Below are positions 3,421 to 64,000 of a stretch of 64,000 nt of DNA, piece by piece. How positions within the stretch are numbered: position 1 is the stretch's first letter; every line of letters begins with the position of its first letter. This DNA is from Eledone cirrhosa (Eukaryota), in NCBI GenBank assembly GCA_964016885.1, contig OZ024740.1:176452001-176516000 (forward strand), written 5' to 3'. The notes below the pieces were generated by a model, which was given only the letters and a program-made list of their open reading frames with translations, had not been told where the DNA came from and made no database searches. The position numbers and the translations under genes are program-made.

Positions 3421-3483
<63 letters not shown>

Positions 3484-3687
3484 CGTTTCTGAATTTGTTT
3501 AGCAAGATTCTTTATCTGAAATCGTGTGTTGAAACCGATATTGTTATACTTTGGGAGGGTCATGTTGCCAATAAGAAACACACGCACCAGTTGCTTTCAC
3601 TTCAGTTTATTATATATTTATAAATTTATAAATTTATAAATTTCTGGTTGGTTGGTTGGTTCCACAACCAGATAGTTGTTTATATAT

Positions 3688-3732
3688 AGTCATAGTTCTT
3701 TCGTCACACACTCTGTGACCTCTTCAGTGACT
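3688..3732 (-). ncRNA. Minimal type I hammerhead ribozyme in PLE 3' pLTR
   Basis: Minus strand: agtca-CTGAAGA-g-gtcaca gagtg tgtgac-GAAA-gaac-TA-tgact. Confidence 0.8.
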
Positions 3733-4359
3733 GGGGATTCCTTTCTTTGTTTCTGTGCCTCTCCTTTGTTCTGTCCTACGCCATTTTGTTTCTGTGTGTG
3801 TGTTGTGTGCTCAGTCTGCGCATGCGCCACATCCGGATGTCTGTGTGTGTTTATGTTCATTTATTTATTTATTTATTTGTTTATTTACATGTTACTGGTT
3901 GGTTGTTTGTTCTATGTGTGTGTGTGTTTTCATTTTGTCCTTAATTGTAAGTTGTGATGTTGCTGTTCCACTCATATTTTCTATTTAATGTTGGTTGTAA
4001 TTCTTTTATGTTTATTGCCTCTGTAATTTGTCTAAACATTGCGTCTTTTCTGTGTGTAGATTCTATTTTTATTTCTATGTTCTCTAATTTACCCTTGTGT
4101 TCTATCTTAGCATGTTGGTAGAGTACAGATGATTCTTTATTATCTTGAAGGTCTCGCCAGTGTTCATTTATCCGTTCCCCTACACTACGAGCTGTCTCAC
4201 CTATGTACACTATATTTTTGTCTCTACATTGTCCTTCAGTACATCTTATGCTATACACTACATTTCTAGTTTTACAGTTAATATGGGGGCTTATTTTACA
4301 GGTTATACATTTCTTATCTATACATGAGGGTCTTTGAAAAGGGTATGTCTTGCTAATAA

Positions 4360-4833
4360 GTGTTTTTACTCAATATTCAGATAGTAGAAAGACCAGGTAC
4401 CTCCGTAAAAACACTTATTAGCAAGACATACCCTTTTCAAAGACCCTCATGTATAGATAAGAAATGTATAACCTGTAAAATAAGCCCCCATATTAACTGT
4501 AAAACTAGAAATGTAGTGTATAGCATAAGATGTACTGAAGGACAATGTAGAGACAAAAATATAGTGTACATAGGTGAGACAGCTCGTAGTGTAGGGGAAC
4601 GGATAAATGAACACTGGCGAGACCTTCAAGATAATAAAGAATCATCTGTACTCTACCAACATGCTAAGATAGAACACAAGGGTAAATTAGAGAACATAGA
4701 AATAAAAATAGAATCTACACACAGAAAAGACGCAATGTTTAGACAAATCACAGAGGCAATAAACATAAAAGAATTACAACCAAAATTAAATAGAAAATAT
4801 GAGTGGAACAGCAACATCACAACTTACAATTAA
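4360..4833 (+). pseudogene. PLE GIY-YIG endonuclease domain with Cys-rich linker (fragment)
   Basis: CIDKKCITC...NVVYSIRC...YIGETARSVGERINEH...RQITEAINIKELQPKLNRK. Confidence 0.9.
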
Positions 4834-9585: not shown

Positions 9586-9744
9586 TGTCAAGGGTACCAA
9601 AAAAACATTTGGTACCCTTGAAATATATATAATAAAATAAATATGGTTTTATAAATATAGTTTCCATTTATTAATATCATTGATATTATACTCCAGGAAA
9701 GCTGTAGAGTGCTTCGAATCTGTTATAATAAATAATTATAAATT

Positions 9745-10810
9745 AAATTTCGTTTCGCTTCTAACTCACTTTTGTATGACTGACGCTTAAACAATTAAGT
9801 TAAAGTGTACATCTACATATGTATACGGAAGTACTAGTATGCATATAAATACACACATGTATACATATGTACATGTACTGAGTTTTTCACTAGACACTTT
9901 ACAGTGAGTGTCCAGCTAGTCTGTATGTAACCACACAGACGGACCGGGTTTTAGAGTCATACGAGTTTTCAAGGAAACACGTTTCCTCTATTCTCCAGAG
10001 AGCCAGACAGGAATATTGGACTAGTTTCGATGTTATTACATCTCATCAGCAATATATACCCATCTTCCGGCTTCTCTAGAGAATTGTAAAAGCACATATC
10101 GTTATATGCTTTTTCTATGAAAATTAGTAGTGGGTAGACTAATTTTCATAGAACGTGAGTCATTGTACGCACCGGTTCAGCGGAAACGATAAAAACAAAT
10201 AACGAAACGAAATTATATTTCGTTTCGCTTCTAACTCACTTTTGTATGACTGACGCTTAAACAATTAAGTTAAAGTGTACATCTACATATGTATACGGAA
10301 GTACTAGTATGCATATAAATACACACATGTATACATATGTACAATTGTTTAAGCGTCAGTCATACAAAAGTGAGTTAGAAGCGAAACGAAATTTAATTTC
10401 GTTTCGTTATTTGTTTTTATCGTTTCCGCTGAACCGGTACGTACAATGACTCACGTTCTATGCAAATTAGTCTACCCACTACTAATTTTCATAGAAAAAG
10501 CATATAACGATATGTGCTTTTACAATTCTCTAGAGAAGCCGGAAGATGGGTATATATTGCTGATGAGATGTAATAACATCGAAACTAGTCCAATATTCCT
10601 GTCTGGCTCTCTGGAGAATAGAGGAAACGTGTTTCCTTGAAAACTCGCATGACTCTAAAACGCGGTCCGTCTGTGTGGTTACATACAGACTAGCTCGACA
10701 CTCACTGTAAAGTGTCTAGTGAAAAACTCAGCACATGTACATATGTATACATGTGTGTATTTATATGCATACTAGTACTTCCGTATACATATGTAGATGT
10801 ACACTTTAAC

Positions 10811-10815
<5 letters not shown>
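9745..10815. mobile_element. HHR-bearing ~470-bp monomer: about 1.3 tandem copies on the minus strand, then one inverted copy ending in (TA)n
   Basis: 9745-9872 is repeated at 10216-10342; 10343-10815 is the reverse complement of the monomer. Confidence 0.85.
10554..10596 (+). ncRNA. Minimal type I hammerhead ribozyme (mirror copy 10013-10055, minus strand)
   Basis: atattg-CTGATGA-gatgt aata acatc-GAAA-ctag-TC-caatat: all core nucleotides canonical, GUC site, palindromic stem III. Confidence 0.92.
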
Positions 10816-10887
<72 letters not shown>

Positions 10888-10936
10888 TATGTTTTGAAAC
10901 AGTGAGTAGGTTTGAAATTAGAAAATAGAATAGCTT

Positions 10937-11212
<276 letters not shown>

Positions 11213-11344
11213 AACGAGTAGGACCCCGACGGCTGAGTTCAAGCCGTCGGGATCCTACTCGTTCCTATTAGCCACTCTACTACCCTAAGTATTGAGTACT
11301 TTGGTGCGTTATGCTCCATCTGGTTCCTTGCCACATTTCCTTCG

Positions 11345-11448
<104 letters not shown>

Positions 11449-11459
11449 ATTATTATTAG

Positions 11460-11798
11460 AAAGCGAGGTTTTTTTACAAAATCAAAAATAACCGAGGTGT
11501 CCTACACAAGTGAAAGTATAAGAAAAAAAGATGAAATCGAAAATACAACTGGAGTCTTATTTAAAAAAAATATATATATATTTATTTGGTTCCTTTACCG
11601 GTTTCGCAGTTCTTCTGCTTTTCAAAAGTAGAGTTGAGAAAAATCACAGACCCTCCATCTGAGAAAAACCACAGACCCTCCATTTCAACTCTACTTTTGA
11701 AAAGCAGAAGAACTGCGAAACCGGTAAAGGAACCAAATAAATATATATATATATTTTTTAAATAAGACTACAGTTGTATTTTCGATTTCATCTTTTTT

Positions 11799-11800
<2 letters not shown>
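11460..11800. mobile_element. Fold-back element with a U3-A8 variant HHR on each arm (11694-11729 +, 11593-11628 -)
   Basis: ctt-TTGAAAA-gcag aagaa ctgc-GAAA-ccgg-TA-aag; the spacer holds a direct duplication of cacagaccctccat. Confidence 0.75.
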
Positions 11801-11845
<45 letters not shown>

Positions 11846-21206: not shown

Positions 21207-21553
21207 TAATTTTGAGATAGAGTGTCCGTGCTGTTTGCTCTGATCTGATTAGTTTTGGGAATTCTACCTGTTTTTATGTTAAAAAAGTCGCTCCAGCGTT
21301 ATTTTTGTGTTGCAAAAATGCTTGTGGTCAAAACAATTTTGTTTGGTCGGTAAAGGTCATGTGAATGTAAAAAGTTGATTTTGCGCCAAGACTGTTTTTA
21401 TGTTAAAAAAGTGGCTCCAGCAAAAATTCTTGGTCAAAACAATTTTGATTGGTCGGTAGAGGTCATGTGGATAAAAAATTGGTTTTGCGCCAAGATTGAG
21501 AAATGACTCTTTCACAACAAATATGTGTGTGTGTGTGTGTGTATGTGTGTGTA

Positions 21554-21585
<32 letters not shown>

Positions 21586-21674
21586 TGTGTGTGTGTGTAG
21601 TAGTAGTAGTAATAAGGTGTTCGATGCTGCGACAATGGCCAGCAGCGATGTGTGTCAAATGTCTATTAAGATAA

Positions 21675-21741
<67 letters not shown>

Positions 21742-22221
21742 GCAGAGTCATTCGAAGGTCAAAAGATATTTTTCAGCTTTTGTCTTATAAGGAGAAGTGC
21801 GTGTGTGTGTGTGTGTGTGTGTGTATTAGTCTCTTTGTATGTTGATGTACGCGTGTGTATGTGTTTGTGTATATATATGTGTGTGTGTGTTTGTGGGTGG
21901 ACCAGTATTTTTTTCCCCCTGGTAAAATGGTGTACATTATTCGATTTTTTCAGTAAAATCGGTTCTCTTAATAGAACATCAAAAATCTTAACAATAAAAG
22001 GTGTGAAATGATATTCACTATATATATATATATACACACATACATATATTCACTACATATATATATATATATACATATATACATACATATATATGCACAT
22101 ATATTTTTTTGTATTGCACCATAGAGCATGTGTGTTTACGTGTGTCATTGTGTTTATAAGTGGGTAGAGATGTGTGCTGATGTAGGTATGTATGTTGACG
22201 TGTGTATGTTGTGGGTTCGTC

Positions 22222-23850
22222 TTAGGGAGAAGTGTTTAGACGGGGTCCGTATTTGTTAATGAAGTAAGATTCCTTGCTGATGCGCTGGGTGTGGGTGGCA
22301 TTATCTTTAAATTTGTAGAGGGGAAAGATTCTGAAGTTGGGATGATTTTGGGCGGCACAGGTATCAATGTGTTCACTCAGTGGTATTTTCCTGTATTCCC
22401 GTATTTTGATTTGGGATCTATGGACAGTCATGCGTTGGCGGAGGCTGTTTTTGGTCTGGCCTATGTATTGTTCTCGACAACCTGAACAAGTTAATACATA
22501 TATTAGATTTTCCGATGCACATGTGAAATTGTGTTTTACTATAAAACGTTGTCCATCTTTGAAATAGAATTCCGAACCCTCTATTAGGTTGATGCAAATG
22601 CCACAGTTGGGTCTATTGCATTTTTTTACTGTGGGTTTCGTTGTTGTGGTTGGCAGTACTTTGGCATGTGTTAAGATGTTTTTCATTGACTTGGATTGTC
22701 TTTTGCTCTTTATGATATCGTGTGTTCGTAGAATTTGGTTCATTCTATGGTCCTTTTTCAATACAGGGATGTTCTAGAGGATGGTGTCAAAGGCCTCATT
22801 GTTGAGGGGGTTGTGTGTGGAGATGTATGGAAGAGCTTTTAGTTTTGGTTGATTTACTTTAGGGTGTCTAAGGTCCTGGGTACTGAGTTTTAGGGCACGT
22901 TGGATTCCATTGTCAATTAGTGATGCAGGGTAGTCCCTGCCTATGAGTGTTTCCTTTAGTTCTTGTAGCCGTAAGTAGCAGATGTTTTTATTGGAGACTA
23001 TAGTACAGATTCTCTTGGCTAAGTTGTAGGGAATATTAATTTTAACGTGTCTAGGGTGGCAAGAGTTGAAGGGGAGATATTGCTTGGAGTCTGTGGGCTT
23101 GTAGTATATGTCTGTTTCTATTTTTTTGTTATGGAACTTAATGAGGATGTCGAGGAAGGGGAGTTGTTGATGGCTGTATTCCATCGTGAAGTTAATATTT
23201 GTGTTGAGCCCATTTATAAGGGTGTGAAATTCTTTAAGTTTTTCGATGTTTTCGTGCCAAAGGATGAAGCAGTCATCTAGATATCGCTTCCAGTTCCTTT
23301 CAATGTGTAAGTGGAGGGTGTTTCCAAATTTGTTTAGGACTTTAGTGTAGAGGGTGATTTCCAGGTATCCCATGACTAGGTTGGCATAAGTAGGGGCTGT
23401 TTTCGTTCCCATAGCGGTCCCAGATTTCTGCCTGTAGGGTTTGTTATTGAAAACGAAGTAATTGTTCTCCAAGATAAATTTGAGTCCCTCTATCACGAAT
23501 TCTTTTTTGATGCGTTGTGGGAGTTCATTGTGGAAATTATCCAGCCAGAATTGGATAGCTTCTATTCCTAGGTTGTGGGGGATGTTGGAGTATAGGTTGA
23601 CTAGATCGAACGTCACTAGTAGGGTTTGTTCAGAAAGTGGCATATTAGGGAGGTGATTGAGCATATCTAGGTCGTCCCTTATATAGCACTAAGTCGTAAC
23701 TTTCTACAGAAGTCTGTGATGTCTTCCTTCATTTCATAGTAGTTAGGACGTAGTGGGGTCGGTGTGAATTTAAGACCTTTGGAGAGTAAGTTGATAAGGT
23801 TGGGTGTTGGTTCTGCACTAGTAAGATTGATAATTTTTATTACTATCGGT
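22222..23850 (-). pseudogene. PLE polyprotein (RT + GIY-YIG), with one in-frame TAG at ~22774 and an N-terminal deletion at ~23690
   Basis: IINL..LLSKGLKFTPTP..FCRKLRL; FDLVNLYSNI; GTAMGT; WKRYLDDC; LPFLDI; CNRPNCGIC..LIYVLTCSGCREQYIGQT. ORFs 22774-23664 and 22222-22761 are in the same frame. Confidence 0.93.
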
Positions 23851-24620
23851 TTCTCCTCCCTGTCTTGTGTTATTTTGTTTGCCTGTATCTGTGTGCTGTG
23901 TCTAAAAAATGGTTGGGGTAGAGGGGTTGTCTGCTGATGTCATTTCTCAATCTTGGCGCAAAACCAATTTTTTATCCACATGACCTCTACCGACCAATCA
24001 AAATTGTTTTGACCAAGAATTTTTGCTGGAGCCACTTTTTTAACATAAAAACAGTCTTGGCGCAAAATCAACTTTTTACATTCACATGACCTCTACCGAC
24101 TAATCAAAATTGTTTTGACCACAAGCATTTTTGCAACACAAAAATAACGCTGGAGCGACTTTTTTAACATAAAAACAGGTAGAATTCCCAAAACTAATCA
24201 GATCAGAGCAAACAGCACGGACACTCTATCTCAAAATTATTTTTGAAAAGCATTTAGAAATGCGCAACCAGTAAAAACTTAAAAACTTAAAACCACAACT
24301 GAATACTAACCCATACAATCACTAATACTCTTTTATTCCTAATAAAACCATTTTTCAACTGTGAACAATTTGTCAGCATTTTCTATTCCGTTTACCAATA
24401 TATATATATATATATATATCAATATATATATATATATATATAAATATTTATATGCATATATACATATATATATAAATATATATTTATATATATAAATATT
24501 TATATACATATATACTTATATATATGTATATAAATATATATATGTATATAAATATATATAAATATATATATATTTATATACACATAAATACACACACACA
24601 CACACAGACACACACACACA

Positions 24621-30829: not shown

Positions 30830-32080
30830 ATCTCTTTCTCTTAATTTCGAGTATATTCTTTTGACCGGCCACCTTCCTGGTGGCAAGGTTGTAAAAGAAA
30901 AGAAATTGTCATCCATTTAATCACAAGAATGTTTTGCAAATCTTGAAGGTGCCAGCTATCGCAACCATTTGCAGACTATGAATTAGGGAGCTGCTCTTTG
31001 TCCGCAAATCCTAGTTCAGTCATACTTTGATCCAAGCGGGTTGGTATATAACTCGTAGCTCCAATAATGATGTGTATGAAGCTAAAGGTGTATCTTGGAT
31101 ACTGGATTTGTAAACTCCTCATCAATGGCCCGTAGATGTTCTCCTTCTCCTGTATTTTTCTGACAACGTTTACATCAAGTGGGCAGCTGATCTCCACAAC
31201 AGAACACGTTCTCAATGTGTGGTCCCAAACTACAATATCAGGCCGGTTGTGCTTTAATTTGGTGGCAGTTTTTATTTTCAGGTTCCACCAGTATTCCTTA
31301 GTGCCATCTGTCTCAATATATTCTTCCTCGTTTGTTAATTTTGTTTTCCCAAGTGCGTTCCAGATGGTTCTAGCTATCCCATCGTGTCTCATGGGGTGGT
31401 AGTAGCGAGATGACATTCTTTCGCAGCTGGCAACAATGTGGCTTACATCCTCGATCTTTGTTTTACATAGCCTACATTTATTGTCAGCTGATGTCATAAA
31501 CTTGTCGGAACTCCATGCCAGGCTTTTTGAGTGGTTTATCCCCTCATCGTCTGTGTTTTACGTCTCAAGTATCCATGCACAACTTATTCTGTAAATTGGT
31601 CAATTTTCTCATCTTGTTTGAACATTGAATAGGATCTTCCGATTTCTCTGGTGAGAGATTTATATCAGGCTTTATTCCATATCTCTCCTCCAGATCAGTG
31701 TCTATTCAAATGATATATTTTTTTCATGCTCATACACCTGGGCAAGATGGTTGTCAACCTTTTTCCTCTGTTGAAGATGTTGCTTAAGTGTTACTATCCG
31801 GGTCTCATATGATGTTAATATGGATTTTAGACCCCGGCCACCTTCCTTGCGTGAGAAGTATAGCCTATCCACATCACCATTGATGTTAAAATTCCCAGTA
31901 ACACTGAGAAGTTTTCGAATTCTAACATCCATCTCACTTAGTTCTTGCAATGACCAGTTCAGCAGGCCAAATGTTGGCGTTAGAATTGGCACAGCATAAG
32001 TATTGTGGGCAATGTATTTGTTGTACGCTGACAGTTCTGATGACCATATTTTCTTTACTCTTCTGAGGTATTCAGTTCTG
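30830..32080 (-). mobile_element. 5'-truncated R4/Dong-like non-LTR retrotransposon (CCHC knuckle + restriction-like endonuclease) in (TATG)n
   Basis: EYLRRVRKIWSSEL; DVDRLYFSRKEGGRGL; CRLCKTKIEDVSHIVASC..RHDGIA; NRPDIVVWD..VVEISCP. Confidence 0.88.
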
Positions 32081-39990: not shown

Positions 39991-40706
39991 AACAGTATCA
40001 TTATGCACATGTATGAAGACGCACAAGTCTGAGGGGGAAAAGGTTCGTAACTTTAAGCTGTTTTAAAGTATCATTTTTTGTATTTTCTTGTCGTTAACGA
40101 AGCATAAGGTACCCAGCTTGGTTCCAAGGGAGGGAGACCTCTCAATGTTCGGGCTTTAAGCCCGAATATTCAGATTTATTTTTAAAAACTTAGAAAACGC
40201 AAATCCCAGAAACGCAAACAACCTAAACAAACACAAGTACAAATAAACACACAAATACCTGAAATTGCAGACACCACACCTACAACAAACGCAGACATAT
40301 CCGAAACAACAACACCAAAACCATCACCACCACAGTCACCAAAACGAAAACAAATAAAACCACACCAACAAAATGTTAAAAACTTCGTGCTTGTTAGAAG
40401 GGCCAACGATAAACTGATGGCCCTCTTAGCACGAAGCGAGGACATTCAAACAGAGGGGGAGATCTTTGAAATGAGCATATTTTGCGTGCCAAAAGGTTTG
40501 CTTCTGGTCCGAATGTCATTCGATTCCTTCAAAGAAATTCGGGAAAGCTTTCCTCAAGACGTGGGAACCCCGAATGTGAAACCCACATCGAGACTTTTAA
40601 AGGGGTTCCTAAAAGAAACCCCACCAACCATGGAGGTCGAACCACCCGACCTCCACAAGACCCCGGGAGGTAAGTAAACCTTCCCTCTCTCTTTTAGCTT
40701 GCCAAC

Positions 40707-41557
40707 ATGGCCATATTAAGAGTAGGAAGTTTAAATGTTCATGGTCTGGGGTCATCCTGGAAGCAGGGTCGCCTGCTCAACGACCTCAGGTCGCTGGAAA
40801 TGGATGTGATTGCCGTCAGCGAGACCAGAATTTCCGACACGCGCGCACTATACCCCATTTTCGACGACTGTCAGATCTTCGCATCTGTTAGCAGGCCGGG
40901 AATGGGAGGTGGGGTGGCAGTGCTGTTTAGGAAAGGACTGGATCTCGAGGTAAGGTCGATCTTCCGGGACCCAGGCGGTAAGTTGGTGGTCTTGGATGTG
41001 AGCAGTAGCGAAGGTGGTGCCATTAGACTGCTGGCCGTCTACGCCCCTACAGGGGCCGGACGACCGGACTTCTGTAGGCGCCTGGAGACCTTTCTGGGTA
41101 CGTCTCGCCCTTTATTGTTAGCGGGGGACTGCAATGGCATCTTAGACGCACGCTGGGATTGTGTGGGAGTAGCTGATAGGAGCGGGGGGTGCAAGCACCT
41201 ACTCAGCCAGTTCCAACTGATAGGTATCGACTAGATTTTCCCAATGCGCCAGTATGGACGTGGACCAACCGAATGGGGTCATCTATATCGTATATAGACA
41301 GGATCTTCATTAGGAAAATAGATAGAAATAGTGTAGGCTGCCCACTTTTTAAAACGGTCGCCTATTCAGATCACAAATTTGTGATCTGTATGGTCGTCTT
41401 AGATAAAACGCGTAGGTTGGGACCGGGTTACTGGAATCTGAACATATCATTTCCGGCACGTAAGACTTACAGGGACCGAGTCAACAAATTAGTTAAGCAA
41501 AAGTTGACAGGGGGATCATCAACAACAGATAGTGGGGGTTCTCAAAAGAGAAATTAG
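40707..41557 (+). pseudogene. APE endonuclease domain of Tx1 ORF2 (frameshift at ~41220)
   Basis: GSLNVHGL..SET..GGGVAVL..VYAP..GDCN..SYIDRIF..SDHK..GYWNLN. Confidence 0.92.
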
Positions 41558-41785
41558 AGTAACATCAATAGAGTTCAGCAAAGAACTAGCGTTAGAGAAA
41601 AATAGAAAGGAGGGGGAGCTGGTAGATAAGTTAGACGACGCTATTTGTGGTGGCATTGCAACTGACGTGCCAGCGGCGAGAATGGCATTAGGCCATTTCT
41701 TAAATGCGAAACACGAAAGTTGCATTGTCAGAGCTAAGCGCGTGCGCTGAGAAACGAGGGAACCAAAGCTGTTCGATGCGCCCGC

Positions 41786-43276
41786 GTGGCGGAGGCGCAG
41801 CGTGGTAATAAAATCACAATTCGGTCGTTGGTGGACCGAGCCGGACACGTGATAAGCGATTCCAAGCGGATGTGTGAAGCCTTTCGCCAGCACTTTACTC
41901 GGTTCGGGGAGAGTGGCGAGTCAGAGAGAGTAGCGTATTTCAGTCCCTACCTTGACGGCTTGCCGCGCATCTCCACGGTTGATGCTGAGCGCTGCAAAAG
42001 GCCGATTACTTCAGCCGAAATTCAGGACGCCCTTGTCGGCTGCATGAGGCGCAAGTCACACGGTTTGGATGGCCTGCCCTACGAGCTTTACGTAAATATG
42101 CCAGTCTTGTTCTCCGATCTCCTCGAAGCACTCTACTGCAACTGGCAGCAGAATGGGAGTATTCCCAGTTCTGTGAGCAGGGGAGTTGTGACGCTGATAA
42201 GGAAAGACGAGAACAAGAGGGATACATTAGACAACTTCAGGCCCATAACTCTGCTCAACACAGAGTTTAAAATTTTGGCCAAGGTGTTAGCAAAGAGTTT
42301 GGCGCTTGTCGTCGAGGATTTGGCTGGGGAGGCGCAAACTTGTGCAATCCCAGTCAGGTCCATACACGACAATCTCCACCTCATGCGATACATCATAGAG
42401 AGGGTAGGGTGTAAACCTGGCTTCGGTGGGGCACTGATCAATTTAGATCAATCGAAAGCATTCGATAGGGTCGACCATCGGTATCTGGAGTTTGTCCTCA
42501 GAGCAGCTGGCTTCGGCCCTGTCTTCAGAAGCTGGATTGTTGCAATGCACAGCGGCACACGCTCGGTGGTCAAGGTTAATGGCCACCTCTCAGAACCATT
42601 TCGGCTATACCGATCGGTCCGTCAAGGGTGCTATCTCTATTCCCTTCTGTACGTATTGACTCTCGAGCCTTTACTGCCGAAGCTGGAGTTGTTGCAGTGC
42701 ATCCCGCTCGAACCGGGACGTGGAAAGGGAGTGTCGGCTTATGCGGACGACATCACCGTGATGGCGTCGGACACCTCAGAAATCGAGGTGGTCGGCACCT
42801 TATTGAAGGAATATGAAAGGTCGACAGGAGCCAAACTTAACCCGGAAAAGTCGGTGGGCTTGCAGCTCGGAACCTGGAGAGGCAAGCCTATGCCGTCCAA
42901 CAGCGACGTTGGGCGCTGGACGGACGGACCGGTAAAGTTGCTCGGGATTTGCTTCGGACCAGACCTCCAGGTTGAAAAGAATTGGGACGAGGTAACGAGC
43001 AAAGTAGCCAGTCTCACCCAAAAATGGGCTGGGAGGAAGCTATCACTGAAAGGTCGCGCGGAGGTGGAGAATGCGTGCATCGCGTCCGTCATCTACTACT
43101 GCCTGACCGTCGTGCCTTGCCCTCGTCCGCGCCTCGTCAAGTTGGAACGGCTCCTCAAATTCTTGTGGAGGGGACAAGTTCCGTTGGTGAGGCGGTCCAT
43201 CTGCTGCCAGCACCCTCTACGCGGAGGGTTGGGCATGCCGTGGCTAATTATGCGCAGACATGCGTTGACGCTGTGA
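41786..43276 (+). pseudogene. RT domain of Tx1 ORF2
   Basis: GLDGLPYE; NFRPITLLNTEFKILAK; LDQSKAFDRVDH; VRQGC; YADDIT. Confidence 0.95.
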
Positions 43277-47371: not shown

Positions 47372-47700
47372 ATATTAATAAATGAAGAATTTTCACATAA
47401 TCAAAATATATGTTTTATTATATATATTTCGAAGGTACTGTGCTGTTGTTTCAGTACGTCCTCGTCAGATAAAATACATGAATTGATGGATGACATACCT
47501 CAACGGTCTTGATGGTTCAATTCCAGTATTGGCAGTCCTGGAATTGAACCATCAAGACCGTTGAGGTATGTCATCCATCAATTTATGTATTTTATCTGAC
47601 GAGGACGTACTGAAAAAACAGCACAGTACCTTCGAAATATACGTAATAAAACATATATTATTTTGATTATGTGAAAGTTCTTCATTTATTAATATTTTTA
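47372..47700. mobile_element. Fold-back element with HHRs (47590-47651 +, 47413-47474 -); relative at 49822-49884 (-), possible half-copy at 9588-9637
   Basis: ttttat-CTGACGA-ggac gtactg...cagtac cttc-GAAA-tata(cg/ta)-TA-ataaaa. Confidence 0.85.
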
Positions 47701-56649: not shown

Positions 56650-59600
56650 GTGTCTGGTGTTAGTGGTAGTGACAGTGTTAGTGTTGATGTTAGTAGTGGT
56701 TATGAGAGTGTTAGTGTTGATGTTAGTAGTGGTAGTGACAGTGTTAGTGTTGATGTTAGTAGTGGTTATGAGAGTGTTAGTGTTGATGTTAGTAGTGGTA
56801 GTGACAGAGTTAGTGTTGATGTTAGTAGTGGTTATGAGAGTGTTAGTGTTGATGTTAGTAGTGGTAGTGACAGTGTTAGTGTTGATGTTAGTAGTGGCTA
56901 TGGCAGTGTTAGTGTTGATGTTAGTAGTGGTAGTGACAGTGTTAGTGTTGATGTTAGTAGTGGCTATGGCAGTGTTAGTGTTGATGTTAGTAGTGGTTAT
57001 GACAGTGTTAGTGTTGATGTTAGTAGTGGTTATGACAGTGTTAGTGTTGATGTTAGTAGTGGTAGTGACAGTGTTAGTGTTGATGTTAGTAGTGGCTATG
57101 GCAGTGTTAGTGTTGATGTTAGTAGTGGTTATGACAGTGTTAGTGTTGATGTTAGTAGTGGTTATGACAGTGTTAGTGTTGATGTTAGTAGTGGTAGTGA
57201 CAGTGTTAGTGTTGATGTTAGTAGTGGCTATGGCAGTGTTAGTGTTGATGTTAGTAGTGGTTATGACAGTGTTAGTGTTGATGTTAGTAGTGGTTATGAC
57301 AGTGTTAGTGTTGATGTTAGTAGTGGTAGTGACAGTGTTAGTGTTGATGTTAGTAGTGGCTATGGCAGTGTTAGTGTTGATGTTAGTAGTGGTTATGACA
57401 GTGTTAGTGTTGATGTTAGTAGTGGTTATGACAGTGTTAGTGTTGATGTTAGTAGTGGTAGTGACAGTGTTAGTGTTGATGTTAGTAGTGGCTATGGCAG
57501 TGTTAGTGTTGATGTTAGTAGTGGTTATGACAGTGTTAGTGTTGATGTTAGTAGTGGTTATGACAGTGTTAGTGTTGATGTTAGTAGTGGTAGTGACAGT
57601 GTTAGTGTTGATGTTAGTAGTGGCTATGGCAGTGTTAGTGTTGATGTTAGTAGTGGTTATGACAGTGTTAGTGTTGATGTTAGTAGTGGTAGTGACAGTG
57701 TTAGTGTTGATGTTAGTAGTGGTTATGACAGTGTTAGTGTTGATGTTAGTAGTGGTAATGACAGTGTTAGTGTTGATGTTAGTAGTGGCTATGGCAGTGT
57801 TAGTGTTGATGTTAGTAGTGGTAGTGACAGTGTTAGTGTTGATGTTAGTAGTGGTTATGACAGTGTTAGTGTTGATGTTAGTAGTGGTAGTGACAGTGTT
57901 AGTGTTGATGTTAGTAGTGGTTATGACAGTGTTAGTGTTGATGTTAGTAGTGGTAGTGACAGTGTTAGTGTTGATGTTAGTAGTGGCTATGGCAGTGTTA
58001 GTGTTGATGTTAGTAGTGGTAGTGACAGTGTTAGTGTTGATGTTAGTAGTGGCTATGGCAGTGTTAGTGTTGATGTTAGTAGTGGTAGTGACAGAGTTAG
58101 TGTTGATGTTAGTAGTGGCTATGGCAGTGTTAGTGTTGATGTTAGTAGTGGTAGTGACAGTGTTAGTGTTGATGTTAGTAGTGGCTATGGCAGTGTTAGT
58201 GTTGATGTTAGTAGTGGTAGTGACAGTGTTAGTGTTGATGTTAGTAGTGGCTATGGCAGTGTTAGTGTTGATGTTAGTAGTGGTAGTGACAGTGTTAGTG
58301 TTGATGTTAGTAGTGGTAATGACAGTGTTATTGTTGATGTTAGTAGTGGCTATGGCAGTGTTAGTGTTGATGTTAGTAGTGGTAGTGACAGTGTTAGTGT
58401 TGATGTTAGTAGTGGTTATGACAGTGTTAGTGTTGATGTTAGTAGTGGTTATGACAGTGTTAGTGTTGATGTTAGTAGTGGTAGTGACAGTGTTAGTGTT
58501 GATGTTAGTAGTGGTAGTGACAGTGTTAGTGTTGATGTTAGTAGTGGTTATGACAGTGTTAGTGTTGATGTTAGTAGTGGTTATGACAGTGTTAGTGTTG
58601 ATGTTAGTAGTGGTTATGACAGTGTTAGTGTTGATGTTAGTAGTGGTTATGACAGTGTCAGTGTTGGTGTTAGTAGTGGTTATGACTGTGTTAGTGTTGA
58701 TGTTAGTAGTGGTTATGACAGTGTTAGTGTTGGTGTTAGTAGTGGTTATGACAGTGTTAGTGTTGATGGTAGTAGTGGTCATGACAGGGTTGGTGTTGAA
58801 GTTAGTAGTGGTTATGACAGTGTTAGTGTTGATGGTAGTAGTGGTTATGACAGTGTTAGTGTTGATGTGAGTAGTGTTTATGACAGTGTTAGTGTTGATG
58901 TTAGTAGTGTTTATGACAGTGTTAGTGTTGATGTTAGTAGTGGTTATGACAGTGTTAGTGTTGATGTTAGTAGTGGTTATGACAGTGTTAGTGTTGATGT
59001 TAATAGTGTTTATGACAGTGTTAGTGTTGATGTTAGTAGTGGTTATGACAGTGTTAGTGTTGATGTCAATAGTGGTTATGACAGTGATAGTGTTGATGTT
59101 AGTAGTGGTTATGACAGTGTCAGTGTTGATGTTAGTAGTGGTTATCACAGTGTTAGTGTTGATGGTAGTAGTGGTTATGACAGTGTTAGTGTTGATGTTA
59201 GTAGTGGTAGTGACAGTGTTAGTGTTGATGTTAGTAGTGGTTATGACAGTGTTAGTGTTGATGTTAGTAGTGGTTATGTCAGTGTTAGTGTTGATGTTAG
59301 TAGTGGTTATGACAGTGTTAGTGTTGATGTTAGTAGTGGTTATGGCAGTGTTAGTGTTGATGTTAGTAGTGGTTATGACAGTGTCAGTGTTGATGTTAGT
59401 AGTGGTTATGACAGTGTCAGTGTTGATGTTAGTAGTGGTTATGACAGTTTCAGTGTTGGTGTTAGTAGTGGTTATGACAGTGTTGATTGTTAGTAGTAGC
59501 TATGACAGTTTCAGTGTTGGTGTTAGTAGTGGTTATGACAGTGTTAGTGTTGATGTTAGTAGTGGTTATGACAGTGTTAGTGTTGATGTTAGTAGTGGTT

Positions 59601-62600
59601 ATGACAGTCGTAGTGTTGATGTTAGTAGTGGCTATGACTGTGTTAGTGTTGATGTTAGTAGTGGTTATGACAGTCGTAGTATTGATGTTAGTAGTGGTTA
59701 TGACAGTGTTAGTGTTGGTGTTAGTAGTGGTTATGACAGTGTTAGTGTTGATGTTAGTAGTGGTTATCACAGTGTTAGTGTTGATGTTACTTGTGGTTAT
59801 GACAGTGTTAGTGTTCATGTTAGTAGTGGTTATGAAAGTCGTAGTGTTGATGTTAGTAGTGGTTATGACAGTGTTAGTGTTGATGGTAGTAATAGCTATG
59901 ACAGTGTTAGTGTTGATGTTAGTAGTGGTTATGACAGTGTTAGTGTTTATGTTATTAGTGGTTATCACAGTGTTAGTGTTGATGTTAGTAGTGGTTATGA
60001 CAGTGTTAATATTGATGTTAGTAGTGCTTATGACAGTGTTAGTGTTGATGTTAGTAGTGGCTATGACAGTGTTAGTGTTGATGTTAGTAGTGGTTATGAC
60101 AGTGTTAGTGTTGATATTAGTAGTGGTTATGACAGTCGTAGTGTTGATGTTAGTAGTGGCTATGACAGTGTTAGTGTTGATGTTAGTAGTGGTTATGGCA
60201 GTGTTAGTGTTGATGTTAGTAGTGGTTATGACAGTGTCAGTGTTGATGTTAGTAGTGGTTATGACAGTGTTAGTGTTGATGTTAGTAGTGGTTATGACAG
60301 TGTTAGTGTTGATGTTAGTAGTGGTTATGACAGTGTTAGTGTTGATGTTAGTAGTGGTTATGACAGCGTTAGTGTTGATGTTAATAGTGGTTATGACAGT
60401 GTTAGTGTTGATGTTAGTAGTGGTTATGACAGTGTTAGTGTTGGTGTTAGTAGTGGTTATGACAGTGTTAGTGTTGGTGTTAGTAGTGGTTATGACAGTG
60501 TTAGTGTTGATGTTAGTAGTGGTTATGACAGTGTTAGTGTTAATGTTAGTAGTGGTTATGACAGTGTTAGTGTTGATGTTAGTAGTGGTTATGGCAGTGT
60601 TAGTGTTGATGTTAGTAGTGGTTATGACAGTGTTAGTGTTGATGTTAGTAGTGGTTATGACAGTGTTAGTGTTGATGTTACTTGTGGTTATGACAGTGTT
60701 AGTGTTGATGTTAGTAGTGGTTATGACAGTCGTAGTGTTGATGTTAGTAGTGGTTATGACAGTGTTAGTGTTGATGGTAGTAGTGCTCATGACAGTGTTA
60801 GTGTTTATGTTATTAGTGGTTATCACAGTGTTAGTGTTGATGTTAGTAGTGGTTATGATAGTGTTAATGTTGATGTTAGTAGTGCTTATGACAGTGTTAG
60901 TGTTGATGTTAGTAGTGGCTATGACAGTCGTAGTGTTGATGTTAGTAGTGGTTATGGCAGTGTTAGTGTTGATGTTAGTAGTGCTTATGACAGTGTTAAT
61001 GTTGATGTTAGTAGTGGTTATGACAGTGTTAGTGTTGATGTTAGTAGTGGTTATGACAGTGTCAGTGTTGATGTTAGTAGTGGTTATGACATGTGTTAGT
61101 GTTGATGTTAGTAGTGGTTATGACAGTGTTAGTGTTGATGTTAGTAGTGGCTATGACAGTGTTAGTGTTGATGTTAGTAGTGGTTATGACAGTGTTAGTG
61201 TTGATGTTAGTTGTGGTTATGACAGTGTTAGTTTTGATGTTAGTAGTGGTTATGACAGTGTCAGTGTTGGTGTTAGTAGTGGTTATGACAGTGTTAGTGT
61301 TGATGTTAGTAGTGGTACTGACAGTGTTAGTGTTGATGTTAGTAGTGGGTATGACAGTGTTAGTGTTGTTGTTAGTAGTGGTTATGGCAGTGTTGATGTA
61401 GTAGTGGTAGTGACAGTGTGAGTGTTGATGTTAGTAGTGGTTATGACAGTGTTAGTGTTGATGTTAGTTGTGGTTATGACAGTGTTGGTTTTGATGTTAG
61501 TAGTGGTTATGGCAGTGTCAGTGTTGGTGTTAGTAGTGGTTATGATAGTGTTAGTGTTGATGTTAGTAGTGGTACTGACAGTGTTAGTGTTGATGTTAGT
61601 ATTGGTTATGACAGTGTTAGTGTTGTTGTTAGTAGTGGTAGTGGCAGTGTTGATGTAGTAGTGGTAGTGACAGTGTGAGTGTTGATGTTAGTAGTGGTTA
61701 TGACAGCGTTAGTGTTGATGTTAGTAGTGGCTATGACAGTCGTAGTGTTGATGTTAGTAGTGGTTATGGCAGTGTTAGTGTTGATGTTAGTAGTGGTTAT
61801 GACAGTGTTAATGTTGATGTTAGTAGTGGTTATGACAGTGTTAGTGTTGATGTTAGTAGTGGTTATGACAGTGTTAGTTTTGATGTTAGTAGTAGTTATG
61901 ATAGTGTTAGTGTTGATGTTAGTAGTGGTTATGATAGTGTTAGTGTTGATGTTAGTAGTGGTTATGACAGTGTTAGTTTTGATGTTAGTAGTGGTTATGA
62001 CAGTGTTAGTTTTGATGTTAGTAGTAGTTATGATAGTGTTAGTGTTGATGTTAGTAGTAGTTATGATAGTGTTAGTGTTGATGTTAGTAGTGGTTATGAC
62101 AGTGTTAGTTTTGATGTTAGTAGTAGTTATGACAGTGTCAGTGTTGGTGTTAGTAGTGGTAGTGGCAGTGTTGATGTAGTAGTGGTAGTGACAGTGTGAG
62201 TGTTGATGTTAGTAGTGGTTATGACAGCGTTAGTGTTGATGTTAGTTGTGGTTATGACAGTGTTGGTTTTGATGTTAGTAGTGGTTATGGCAGTGTCAGT
62301 GTTGGTGTTAGTAGTGGTTATGATAGTGTTAGTGTTGATGTTAGTAGTGGTACTGACAGTGTTAGTGTTGATGTTAGTAGTGGTTATGACAGTTTTAATG
62401 TTGATGTTAGTAGTGGTTATGACAGCGTTAGTGTTGATGTTAGTAGTGGTTATGACAGTGTTAGTGTTGATGTTAGTAGTGGTTATGACAGTGTTAGTGT
62501 TGGTGTTAGTAGTGGTTATGACAGTGTTAGTGTTGGTGTTAGTAGTGGTTATGACAGTGTTAGTGTTGATGTTAGTAGTGGTTATGACAGTGTTAGTGTT

Positions 62601-64000
62601 GATGTTAGTAGTGGTTATGACAGTGTTAGTGTTGGTGTTAGTAGTGGTTATGACAGTGTTATTGTTGGTGTTAGTAGTGGTTATGACAGTGTTAGTGTTG
62701 ATGTTAGTAGTGTTTATGACAGTGTTAGTGTTGATGTTAGTAGTGGTTATGACAGTGTTAGTGTTGATGTTAGTAGTGGTTATGGCAGTGTTAGTGTTGA
62801 TGTTAGTAGTGGTTATGACAGTGTTAGTGTTGATGTTAGTAGTGGTTATGACAGTGTTAGTGTTGATGTTACTTGTGGTTATGACAGTGTTAGTGTTGAT
62901 GTTAGTAGTGGTTATGACAGTCGTAGTGTTGATGTTAGTAGTGGTTATGACAGTGTTAGTGTTGATGGTAGTAATGGCTATGACAGTGTTAGTGTTGATG
63001 TTAGTAGTGGTTATGACAGTGTTAGTGTTGATGTTATTAGTGGTTATCACAGTGTTAGTGTTGATGTTAGTAGTGGTTATGACAGTGTTAATGTTGATGT
63101 TAGTAGTGCTTATGACAGTGTTAGTGTTGATGTTAGTAGTGGCTATGACAGTCGTAGTGTTGATGTTAGTAGTGGTTATGGCAGTGTTAGTGTTGATGTT
63201 AGTAGTGGTTATGACAGTGTTAATGTTGATGTTAGTAGTGGTTATGACAGTGTTAGTGTTGATGTTAGTAGTGGTTATGACAGTGTCAGTGTTGATGTTA
63301 GTAGTGGTTATGACATGTCTTAGTATTGATGTTAGTAGTGGTTATGACAGTGTTAGTGTTGATGTTAGTAGTGGATATGACAGTGTTAGTGTTGATGTTA
63401 GTATTGGTTATGACAGTGTCAGTGTTGATGTTAGTAGTGGTTATGATAGTGTTAGTGTTGATGTTAGTAGTGGTTATGACAGTGTTAGTGTTGATGTTAG
63501 TAGTGGTTATGACAGTGTCAGTGTTGATGTTAGTAGTGGTTATGACATGTGTTAGTGTTGATGTTAGTTGTGGTTATGACAGTGTTAGTGTTGATGTTAG
63601 TAGTGGATATGACAGTGTTAGTGTTGATGTTAGTAGTGGATATGACAGTGTTAGTGTTGATGTTAGTAGTGGCTATGACAGTCGTAGTGTTGATGTTAGT
63701 AGTGGTTATGGCAGTGTTAGTGTTGATGTTAGTAGTGGTCATGACAGTGTTAATGTTGATGGTAGTAGTGGTTATGACATGTGTTAGTGTTGATGTTAGT
63801 AGTGGTTATGACAGTGTTAGTGTTGATGTTAGTTGTGGTTATGACAGTGTTAGTGTTGATGTTAGTAGTGGATATGACAGTGTCAGTGTTGATGTTAGTA
63901 GTGGTTATGACATGTGTTAGTGTTGATGTTAGTAGTGGTTATGACAGTGTTAGTGTTGATGTTAGTTGTGGTTATGACAGTGTTAGTTTTGATGTTAGTA
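56650..64000. repeat. 33-bp minisatellite (gttagtagtggttatgacagtgttagtgttgat)n, preceded by degenerate (GGT)n at 56040-56650; runs off the window
   Basis: 11-residue periodicity (VSSGYDSVSVD / TTTNINTNTVI) in all repeat ORFs. Confidence 0.97.

Follow-up and report, generated by a model that had tools for sequence, protein, structure and literature searches.

The insertion at positions 9740–10816 of the window (the 64,000-nucleotide stretch of Eledone cirrhosa contig OZ024740.1 analysed here) raises the question of how a unit with a hammerhead ribozyme motif came to stand in the genome as two opposed copies, and from what kind of template these were made. The insertion consists of two head-to-head arms of a 470-nt non-coding unit, numbered from window position 10346, with 1.29 units on the minus strand and 1.0 on the plus strand (Table 1). 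The original prediction placed its start at 9745, whereas the left end was found at 9740; the description of a monomer read past its own end, about 1.3 copies, agrees with the minus arm, in which 134 nt are directly repeated at a spacing of 470. Between the two arms 6 of 470 positions are different; of 122 arms from elsewhere, 18 resemble the left arm more closely than its partner does. The left outer end, at unit 54, stops 21 nt before reaching the fixed end B (unit 75) and adjoins the truncated tail of a Hydra-like Penelope-like element (75–80 % matches to such an element at L172); the short end is probably the result of a later deletion. There was no fixed A>G among the changes of the window copy, which is an ordinary dead-end daughter of a retrozyme family. 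We consider it likely that this daughter was made from a circular RNA of the 470-nt retrozyme, copied by a Penelope-like enzyme from two sites, A and B.

Table 1. Features of the insertion, its flanks and its hammerhead motif, in window coordinates
Feature	Position	Strand	Remarks
Left arm	9740–10343	-	604 nt; ribozyme sense on minus; unit 391–470, 1–470, 1–54
Right arm	10343–10816	+	474 nt; unit 468–470, 1–470, +1; stops at fixed end A
Head-to-head junction	10343–10343		5' ends of the arms meet; 1 nt common to both
Hammerhead, left arm	10013–10055	-	type I; identical to plus-strand motif; predicted cleavage 3' of 10019
"Tail" segment, internal	10189–10263	-	unit 1–75; contains 13-bp hairpin, unit 35–63
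"Tail" segment, right arm	10346–10420	+	unit 1–75
(TA)35 tract	10816–10885		usual insertion target of the 470-nt family
Flank outside insertion	9590–9735	+	Hydra-like Penelope-like element (its end and part of its tail), placed tail-to-tail with left arm
Type I hammerhead, extended stem I	10545–10603	+	from core pattern, covariation and fold energies
Helix Ib	10545–10550 with 10598–10603	+	second 6-bp helix beyond stem I internal loop
Stem I	10554–10559 with 10591–10596	+	ATATTG/CAATAT, 6 bp
Core CTGATGA	10560–10566	+	hammerhead core
Stem II	10567–10580	+	GATGT/ACATC, 5 bp, loop AATA
GAAA	10581–10584	+	hammerhead core
ACTAGT palindrome	10584–10589	+	6 nt; stem III = one A-U pair on CUAG
GTC	C17 = 10590	+	predicted cleavage after C10590

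The canonical type I core predicted at 10554–10596 was borne out: CUGANGA, GAAA and NUH are present together with stems I–III, and an identical copy lies at 10055–10013 on the minus strand. The motif is not the minimal hammerhead it had been taken for. Its stem I runs on via a 3x1 internal loop into helix Ib, which is conserved (92 % of cells paired), and the Rfam model HH9 aligned over its full length (E 3.6e-7, 32.9 bits, under the gathering score of 52). At gathering score Rfam gave no match in the window, and miRNA matches at a relaxed Rfam threshold were rejected as due to the palindrome. Exact copies of the 41-nt core number 1,366 genome-wide, against none of the reversed control. Core and palindrome are invariant in 20 variants taken from the 470-nt family and a 425-nt sister family, A-CUAG-U being invariant in both; across the hammerhead 93 % of cells are paired and 7 of 18 pairs show two-sided change, coming from about three lineages only.

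The palindrome had been described as a ctag suited to dimeric folding. It is palindromic and, by predicted energies, fit for such folding, but its length is 6 nt (ACTAGT). The energies calculated with nearest-neighbour parameters were -6.3 for the active monomer, -29.4 for the double hammerhead and -16.1 kcal/mol per monomer for an inactive hairpin, so that the active monomer fold comes out about 10 kcal/mol less stable than the inactive hairpin, and the double hammerhead differs from two hairpins by no more than about 3. The hammerhead is thus predicted to be dimer-dependent, of the axolotl type. The internal loop of stem I (unit 203–209, window 10548–10554) has 5–6 six-mer haplotypes compared to a median of 2; since this variation is between loci, the loop was rejected as a site of misreading at each pass. 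For the window copy itself a fold-back hairpin of about 500 bp, with the ribozyme buried inside, is predicted. Having a single ribozyme on each strand, the copy cannot set a monomer free through double cleavage. This, together with the long predicted hairpin, makes it a poor test substrate rather than the best candidate for testing, and the tandem loci are better ones.

Several other repeats were seen in the window. Three more hammerhead-like motifs, of the kind seen in the terminal repeats of Hydra-like elements, lie at 47468 (-), 47596 (+) and 49878 (-), the first two forming an inverted pair. A 487-bp tandem repeat (2.7 copies, 88 % matches) occupies 1–1320, and no hammerhead core was found in it. 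At 56661–64000 there is a 33-bp minisatellite of at least 223 copies, in which both strands contain long stop-free frames. Endonuclease and reverse transcriptase frames at 40186–43276 and a C-terminal fragment at 30976–31557 are presumably fragments of LINE type. Short palindromic inserts between (TA)n tracts, at 10930–11119, 11210–11345 and 11517–11805, are possibly very short inverted insertions of other families.

The genome assembly analysed (3.0 Gb) contains more than 2,000 insertions of the 470-nt family, about 120 of which were read. The outer ends of its arms are at A (unit 470, plus 1 to 7 nt) or at B (unit 74–75), 68–75 nt apart. Ends at unit 75 with (AT)n after them number 2,104; the A-end count covers the young subfamily only, with an inflated reverse count, and is therefore not comparable with the B-end count. 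Besides young subfamilies (94–99 %) there are more divergent ones (81–93 %). The tandem and permuted copies that the original prediction led one to look for elsewhere in the genome were found, with a 470-nt period, the 1,366 exact hammerheads and long arrays (14 units; at least 46 in the longest). On the circular unit, of which 173 of 470 nt (37 %) are G or C, the longest stop-free frame has 88 codons. The predicted circular fold of the ribozyme strand has an energy of -150.4 kcal/mol (z -10.7, 60 shuffles) compared to -131.9 for the antisense strand, and two-sided change was seen in 6 of its 146 pairs (21 units). As a non-coding tandem unit with a GC content under the 45–50 % limit, one type I hammerhead each and a strongly self-paired predicted circle, the family answers at the sequence level to the definition of a non-LTR retrozyme, and no LTR-like structure was seen in it. 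Fixed 3' ends, variable 5' ends and the strand-specific A>G changes described below indicate RNA-mediated dispersal.

Insertions of the family are biased towards (TA)n or AT-rich targets. Target-site duplications, which in non-LTR retrozymes exceed 4 bp when present, were recognised by eye, with 8–12 bp, at L140, L153, L160 and L310; the automated count was 7 of 62 against 6.5 % in the control, most flanks being (TA)n. Long arrays contain higher-order repeats (L312, L313–314, L316, L317), which means that satellite-like duplication at the DNA level acts after insertion. Arrays with multi-unit blocks were also noted at L161, L313, L314 and C1:51786703-51793584, with a 1,713-bp period in the sister family. 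The strict dimer periodicity seen in L270 was not upheld over the whole of locus L310. At L311 (= L147) the insertions of two subfamilies are joined at the hairpin of unit 37–63.

The sister retrozyme family (L108, L250–L309) has a 425-nt unit, the palindrome ACUAGU and a stem II whose base is frequently a U-U pair, and 4,371 matches to the tail motif shared with it were found. Its ends lie at 425 (47) and at 59 (42). Its pairs were called AB in 21 cases (overlapping loci account for 3 repeat calls), AA in 3 and otherwise in 6; in the three AA calls the arms seem to have been interrupted at an internal (TA)n tract.

In the mechanism that we propose, the 470-nt family would be transcribed from tandem loci, and the transcript would be cut by the hammerhead acting as a dimer and then closed into a circle. 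A staggered break in a (TA)n tract would be the place of its reverse transcription, with the enzyme, supplied by an autonomous Penelope-like element, using one end of the broken DNA to prime at site A and the other end to prime at site B, both on the same RNA. Reverse transcription would run round the circle for more than one unit, and the two cDNAs would be joined at their 3' ends, presumably by microhomology. That the template is a circle and that a Penelope-like protein does the work we infer from the observations that follow.

The arms pass the predicted cleavage site in 146 of 169 cases, and in 29 of 36 where the loci had been selected independently of the ribozyme. A pile-up of 5' ends at the cleavage site is absent (3 ends, compared to 3.6 expected). 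Since the arms pass the site and their 5' ends do not gather there, the template was not a cut linear monomer, and the circular or multimeric template of the original prediction is supported. The two arms of a locus are as similar (139/21,594 differences, 0.64 %) as its neighbouring units are (490/72,516, 0.68 %), and the partner arm is the nearest arm in 40 of 57 cases, which points to one template for both arms.

Genomes are known to carry edited copies of retroviruses and retroelements. To polarise changes in the 470-nt family, each of 119 loci was compared with its nearest relatives, ancestral states being estimated. Changes fixed in all copies of a locus were, on the ribozyme strand, A>G in 52 cases against T>C in 8 (p 2e-9), with G>A in 11 and C>T in 7, and the A>G excess persisted with 4, 7 or 12 neighbours. 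Changes confined to a single copy (A>G 38, T>C 35) or to one arm only (6 and 13) differ from this pattern (Fisher p 3e-5). A G stands 5' of only 2 of the 52 fixed A>G sites, compared to 17.8 % (p 0.003; p 0.06 with 4 neighbours), and the sites cluster by locus (p 1.5e-4). Clusters of A>G were found in 14 of 338 distinct segments, at three loci, and clusters of T>C, G>A or C>T in none. A preference of ADAR against a 5' G, and the pattern of A-to-I hyper-editing, are described in PMC4365171. We infer that the fixed A>G marks are the product of A-to-I editing. Selection for G-U pairs could add to the excess; a matching excess of C>T is absent. In the sister family the fixed changes (A>G 11, T>C 4) show a non-significant trend in the same direction (p 0.12).

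The distribution of the marks bears on the number of templates. The A>G haplotype of L242 has four matches genome-wide, all at L242, in all four covering copies and in both arms of what is a short insertion; that of L243 has three, all at L243, in all three covering copies of one arm. Edited haplotypes present in every unit, and only at their own locus, indicate that one edited unit was multiplied at each locus, which is most simply explained by a reverse transcriptase circling from both start sites. A source locus that is absent from this assembly, or arm-to-arm conversion in the palindromes, is a possible alternative origin of the marks. On balance we hold it about an even chance that these A-to-I barcodes record a dimer of Penelope-like reverse transcriptase priming both ends of a break at two fixed sites and rolling round one circle. 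If so, they would be genomic proof that animal ribozyme circles are a transposition template copied by Penelope-like enzymes, and host editing would feed the sequence evolution of the family.

The marks can also be read as the outcome of two-site Penelope-like priming on a linear, uncut multimer, followed by spreading through DNA duplication and arm conversion, with a weak or dispensable hammerhead. We regard this as improbable, though it has a number of observations on its side. Ribozyme mutants still insert in the Anolis system, where cleavage was dispensable and uncut RNA was the main template in vitro (PMC11167929), and cleavage was seen in only 1 of 9 Xenopus retrozyme dimers (10.64898/2026.07.22.740005); poor folding is predicted for the monomer here as well. 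In the A+B insertion at L310:1380-8659, of about 15 units, each arm is a mosaic of unedited units and a unit bearing 27 A>G changes, with switches lying inside units and a ribozyme core free of A>G changes (a 5' G at 3 of 32 A>G sites, p 0.16 for this locus alone). The L310 template was not one monomer; either multimers were copied or the reverse transcriptase switched between molecules. Minority alleles within a locus correspond to the consensus at other loci in 83 of 362 cases, in excess of a null of 20 +/- 4.5, and the higher-order repeats of the long arrays (L312, L313–314, L316, L317) are also what a multimer with later DNA duplication would leave. Against it, the lack of A>G excess among single-copy and one-arm variants means that units were not edited independently, and the L242 haplotype is carried by every covering copy of a short insertion, in both arms, and found nowhere else. 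The locus L223/L315 has no variant common to two units except the fixed ones, and the invariant core and palindrome, with stems that covary across subfamilies, are at odds with a dispensable hammerhead.

Copying from two sites is in line with the ends of the insertions. The 108 loci mapped were selected by similarity rank (38), in order along contig 1 (30) or by end B (40). They include 72 head-to-head pairs, and in 59 of these both outer ends are at A or B, as AB in 57, AA in one and BB in one, the lone BB locus having palindromic flanks. The remaining 13 of the 72 pairs, the window copy included, have one other or cut-off end, and 37 loci are single arms. In the sets not chosen by end, AB was found in 36 of 38 (p 2.7e-9). 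The 5' ends of the two arms are uncorrelated (median distance 100 compared to 117 after shuffling, p 0.11), 36 of 64 junctions overlap by 1–61 nt, and at L155, L225, L231 and L244 neither arm contains the other. The two fixed ends, one per arm, together with the uncorrelated 5' ends and the non-nested arms, show that each arm was primed on the RNA separately and that the two primings were joined head to head.

The original prediction had instead supposed that the monomer was read past its end before inverting, which would mean one overshooting pass of the reverse transcriptase and an inversion by fold-back or twin priming. Variants shared by the arms of a locus, and junctions that in some cases lie in hairpins near unit 33–47, would suit such an inversion. 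It does not account for one arm ending at the fixed site A and the other at the fixed site B, or for 5' ends that are uncorrelated between arms, and it is contradicted by the four loci with non-nested arms; we therefore give it very little credence.

An adjacent inverted, 5'-truncated copy with a tail on one end is the architecture of Penelope-like elements, for which inverted truncated copies, a one-end tail and a (TA)n bias have been reported (PMC8557442). Reverse transcription there has two internal start sites, the tail being the stretch between them, and both strands are cleaved and extended at AT-rich targets with no strand difference in start site (PMC11167929).

Three young autonomous Penelope-like families, each with two ends as in the retrozymes, were found in the genome. 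The ends are 58–60 nt apart in a family with an 863-aa protein, about 38 nt in the Neptune-like and 85–88 nt in the Hydra-like family. In Pfam the Neptune-like protein matched RT and GIY-YIG and the 863-aa protein matched RT below threshold. The Hydra-like family (L172:2780-6680) is young, with a 759-aa frame, a hammerhead with palindromic stem III and an 85–88-nt tail; its protein had no Pfam match and contains the DKT and CxCX5C motifs. These motifs are given for the Hydra clade in PMC8557442, where Hydra-like elements are reported only from aquatic invertebrates. A hammerhead scan of the Neptune-like family found none. Two of the families are also present in the window: an inverted truncated copy of the 863-aa family at 3482–4833 (its own hammerhead-like motif, ends 58–60 nt apart; 99 % identity and 37,597 first-look candidates for the family), and a Neptune-like element at 21500–24400 with RT and GIY-YIG at 22222–23688 on the minus strand (784-aa frames and an upstream 455-aa frame in the family; 20,996 candidates).

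A partner with sequence related to the unit was sought in several ways. Comparison of the unit with 58 loci of two autonomous families gave no related element, and its terminal homology to the three autonomous families was limited to short matches (E 0.4); other families exist in the genome. Three pattern searches for related ribozymes or tails returned retrozyme families only and no partner. Forty B-ended loci lacking the exact ribozyme proved to be other subfamilies, 81–93 % identical and with no ORF, and no partner element lay downstream of the divergent endonuclease matches listed. The frame with RT and GIY-YIG was absent from the 470-nt family loci read.

At three loci, among 20 flanks chosen for reading, a retrozyme arm stands head-to-head with an arm of an autonomous element, Neptune-like at L170, of the 863-aa family at L173 and Hydra-like at L176. 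The ends are complementary (B+A, A+B and B+A, respectively) with no continuation on the far side. As L177 and L289 are plain nested insertions and the composites may be secondary, we rejected them as proof of the partner and regard them as suggestive only; different Penelope-like particles may co-operate at one break.

The identical insertion architecture of the autonomous families could also mean that the insertion is nothing more than the terminal part (pseudo-LTR) left when an ordinary autonomous Penelope-like element was truncated at its 5' end. This is a far-fetched reading, given that upstream of the units there is another unit and never, in the loci read, a same-sense ORF, that arrays reach 46 units or more, and that neither homology to the three autonomous families nor, in the ribozyme and tail pattern searches, a match outside the retrozyme families was found. 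Finally, palindromes and tandem arrays are error-prone in assemblies and Rfam gave no match at gathering score, but that the insertion is a satellite DNA or an assembly artefact whose ribozyme-like motif is due to chance is scarcely credible: the arms are not identical (6 of 470 positions differ), the ends are fixed across dispersed loci, the A>G changes are strand-specific and the stems covary.

Among known systems, the non-autonomous Chlamys elements such as MRC1 (PMC8557442) are likewise Penelope-like derivatives in multicopy head-to-tail insertions. Unlike the 470-nt family, they share 3'-end similarity with their autonomous partners and belong to a clade without canonical hammerheads (PMC8557442). 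The axolotl HHR_Amex1 and newt satellite 2 hammerheads (PMC7229834) are of type I with a one-pair stem III and a palindromic tetraloop, as here, and the HHR_Amex1 type is poor as a monomer and efficient as a dimer. That form has been tied to amphibians, most invertebrates having efficient monomer cleavage (PMC7229834), whereas the present host has Hydra-like elements, which PMC8557442 reports from aquatic invertebrates only.

Endonuclease-positive Penelope-like elements (PMC8557442, PMC11167929) share with the 470-nt family 5'-truncated partial tandems, an inverted neighbour, a one-end tail, (TA)n targets, a hammerhead, and ends that lie within the RNA at a distance from the cleavage site. The 470-nt family differs in having no RT/GIY-YIG frame and a tail of 68–75 nt compared to 30–40. 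Its strict one-A-one-B pairing in the genome also contrasts with the lack of a strand difference in start site in vitro for Anolis Poseidon (PMC11167929), and constrains how the enzyme uses the two in vitro start sites.

The animal non-LTR retrozymes (PMC7229834; 10.64898/2026.07.22.740005) are, like the 470-nt family, non-coding, low-GC tandem units with one type I hammerhead each, a self-paired predicted circle and co-occurrence with Penelope-like elements. The size of 470 nt is greater than the 170–400 nt of PMC7229834 and lies inside the range of 51–972 of 10.64898/2026.07.22.740005. Terminal-repeat homology to an autonomous family was reported for 21 of 57 Xenopus families (10.64898/2026.07.22.740005) and was not found for the 470-nt unit; circles and cleavage have been demonstrated for known animal retrozymes, whereas those of the 470-nt family are predicted. 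In the parts consulted of PMC7229834 and 10.64898/2026.07.22.740005 there is no mention of head-to-head arms, of two fixed ends or of editing marks; "inverted" has no occurrence in the main text of the former and one, off-topic, in the latter. A search of the literature for retrozymes with inversions, tails or editing, or in cephalopods, found no report, most subscription papers being outside the search.

Circles have been presumed to be the templates of retrozyme insertion and Penelope-like elements the candidate enzymes (PMC7229834), to which 10.64898/2026.07.22.740005 adds co-occurrence and phylogeny while stating that the mechanism remains open. The present family itself bears the Penelope-specific two-site signature, and its ends tie retrozymes to Penelope-like priming. 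The editing marks point to a circular template and offer a way to count the template molecules per insertion. As young autonomous families with long open frames are present in the same genome, both the partner and the question of circle or linear RNA can be tested by the existing assay.
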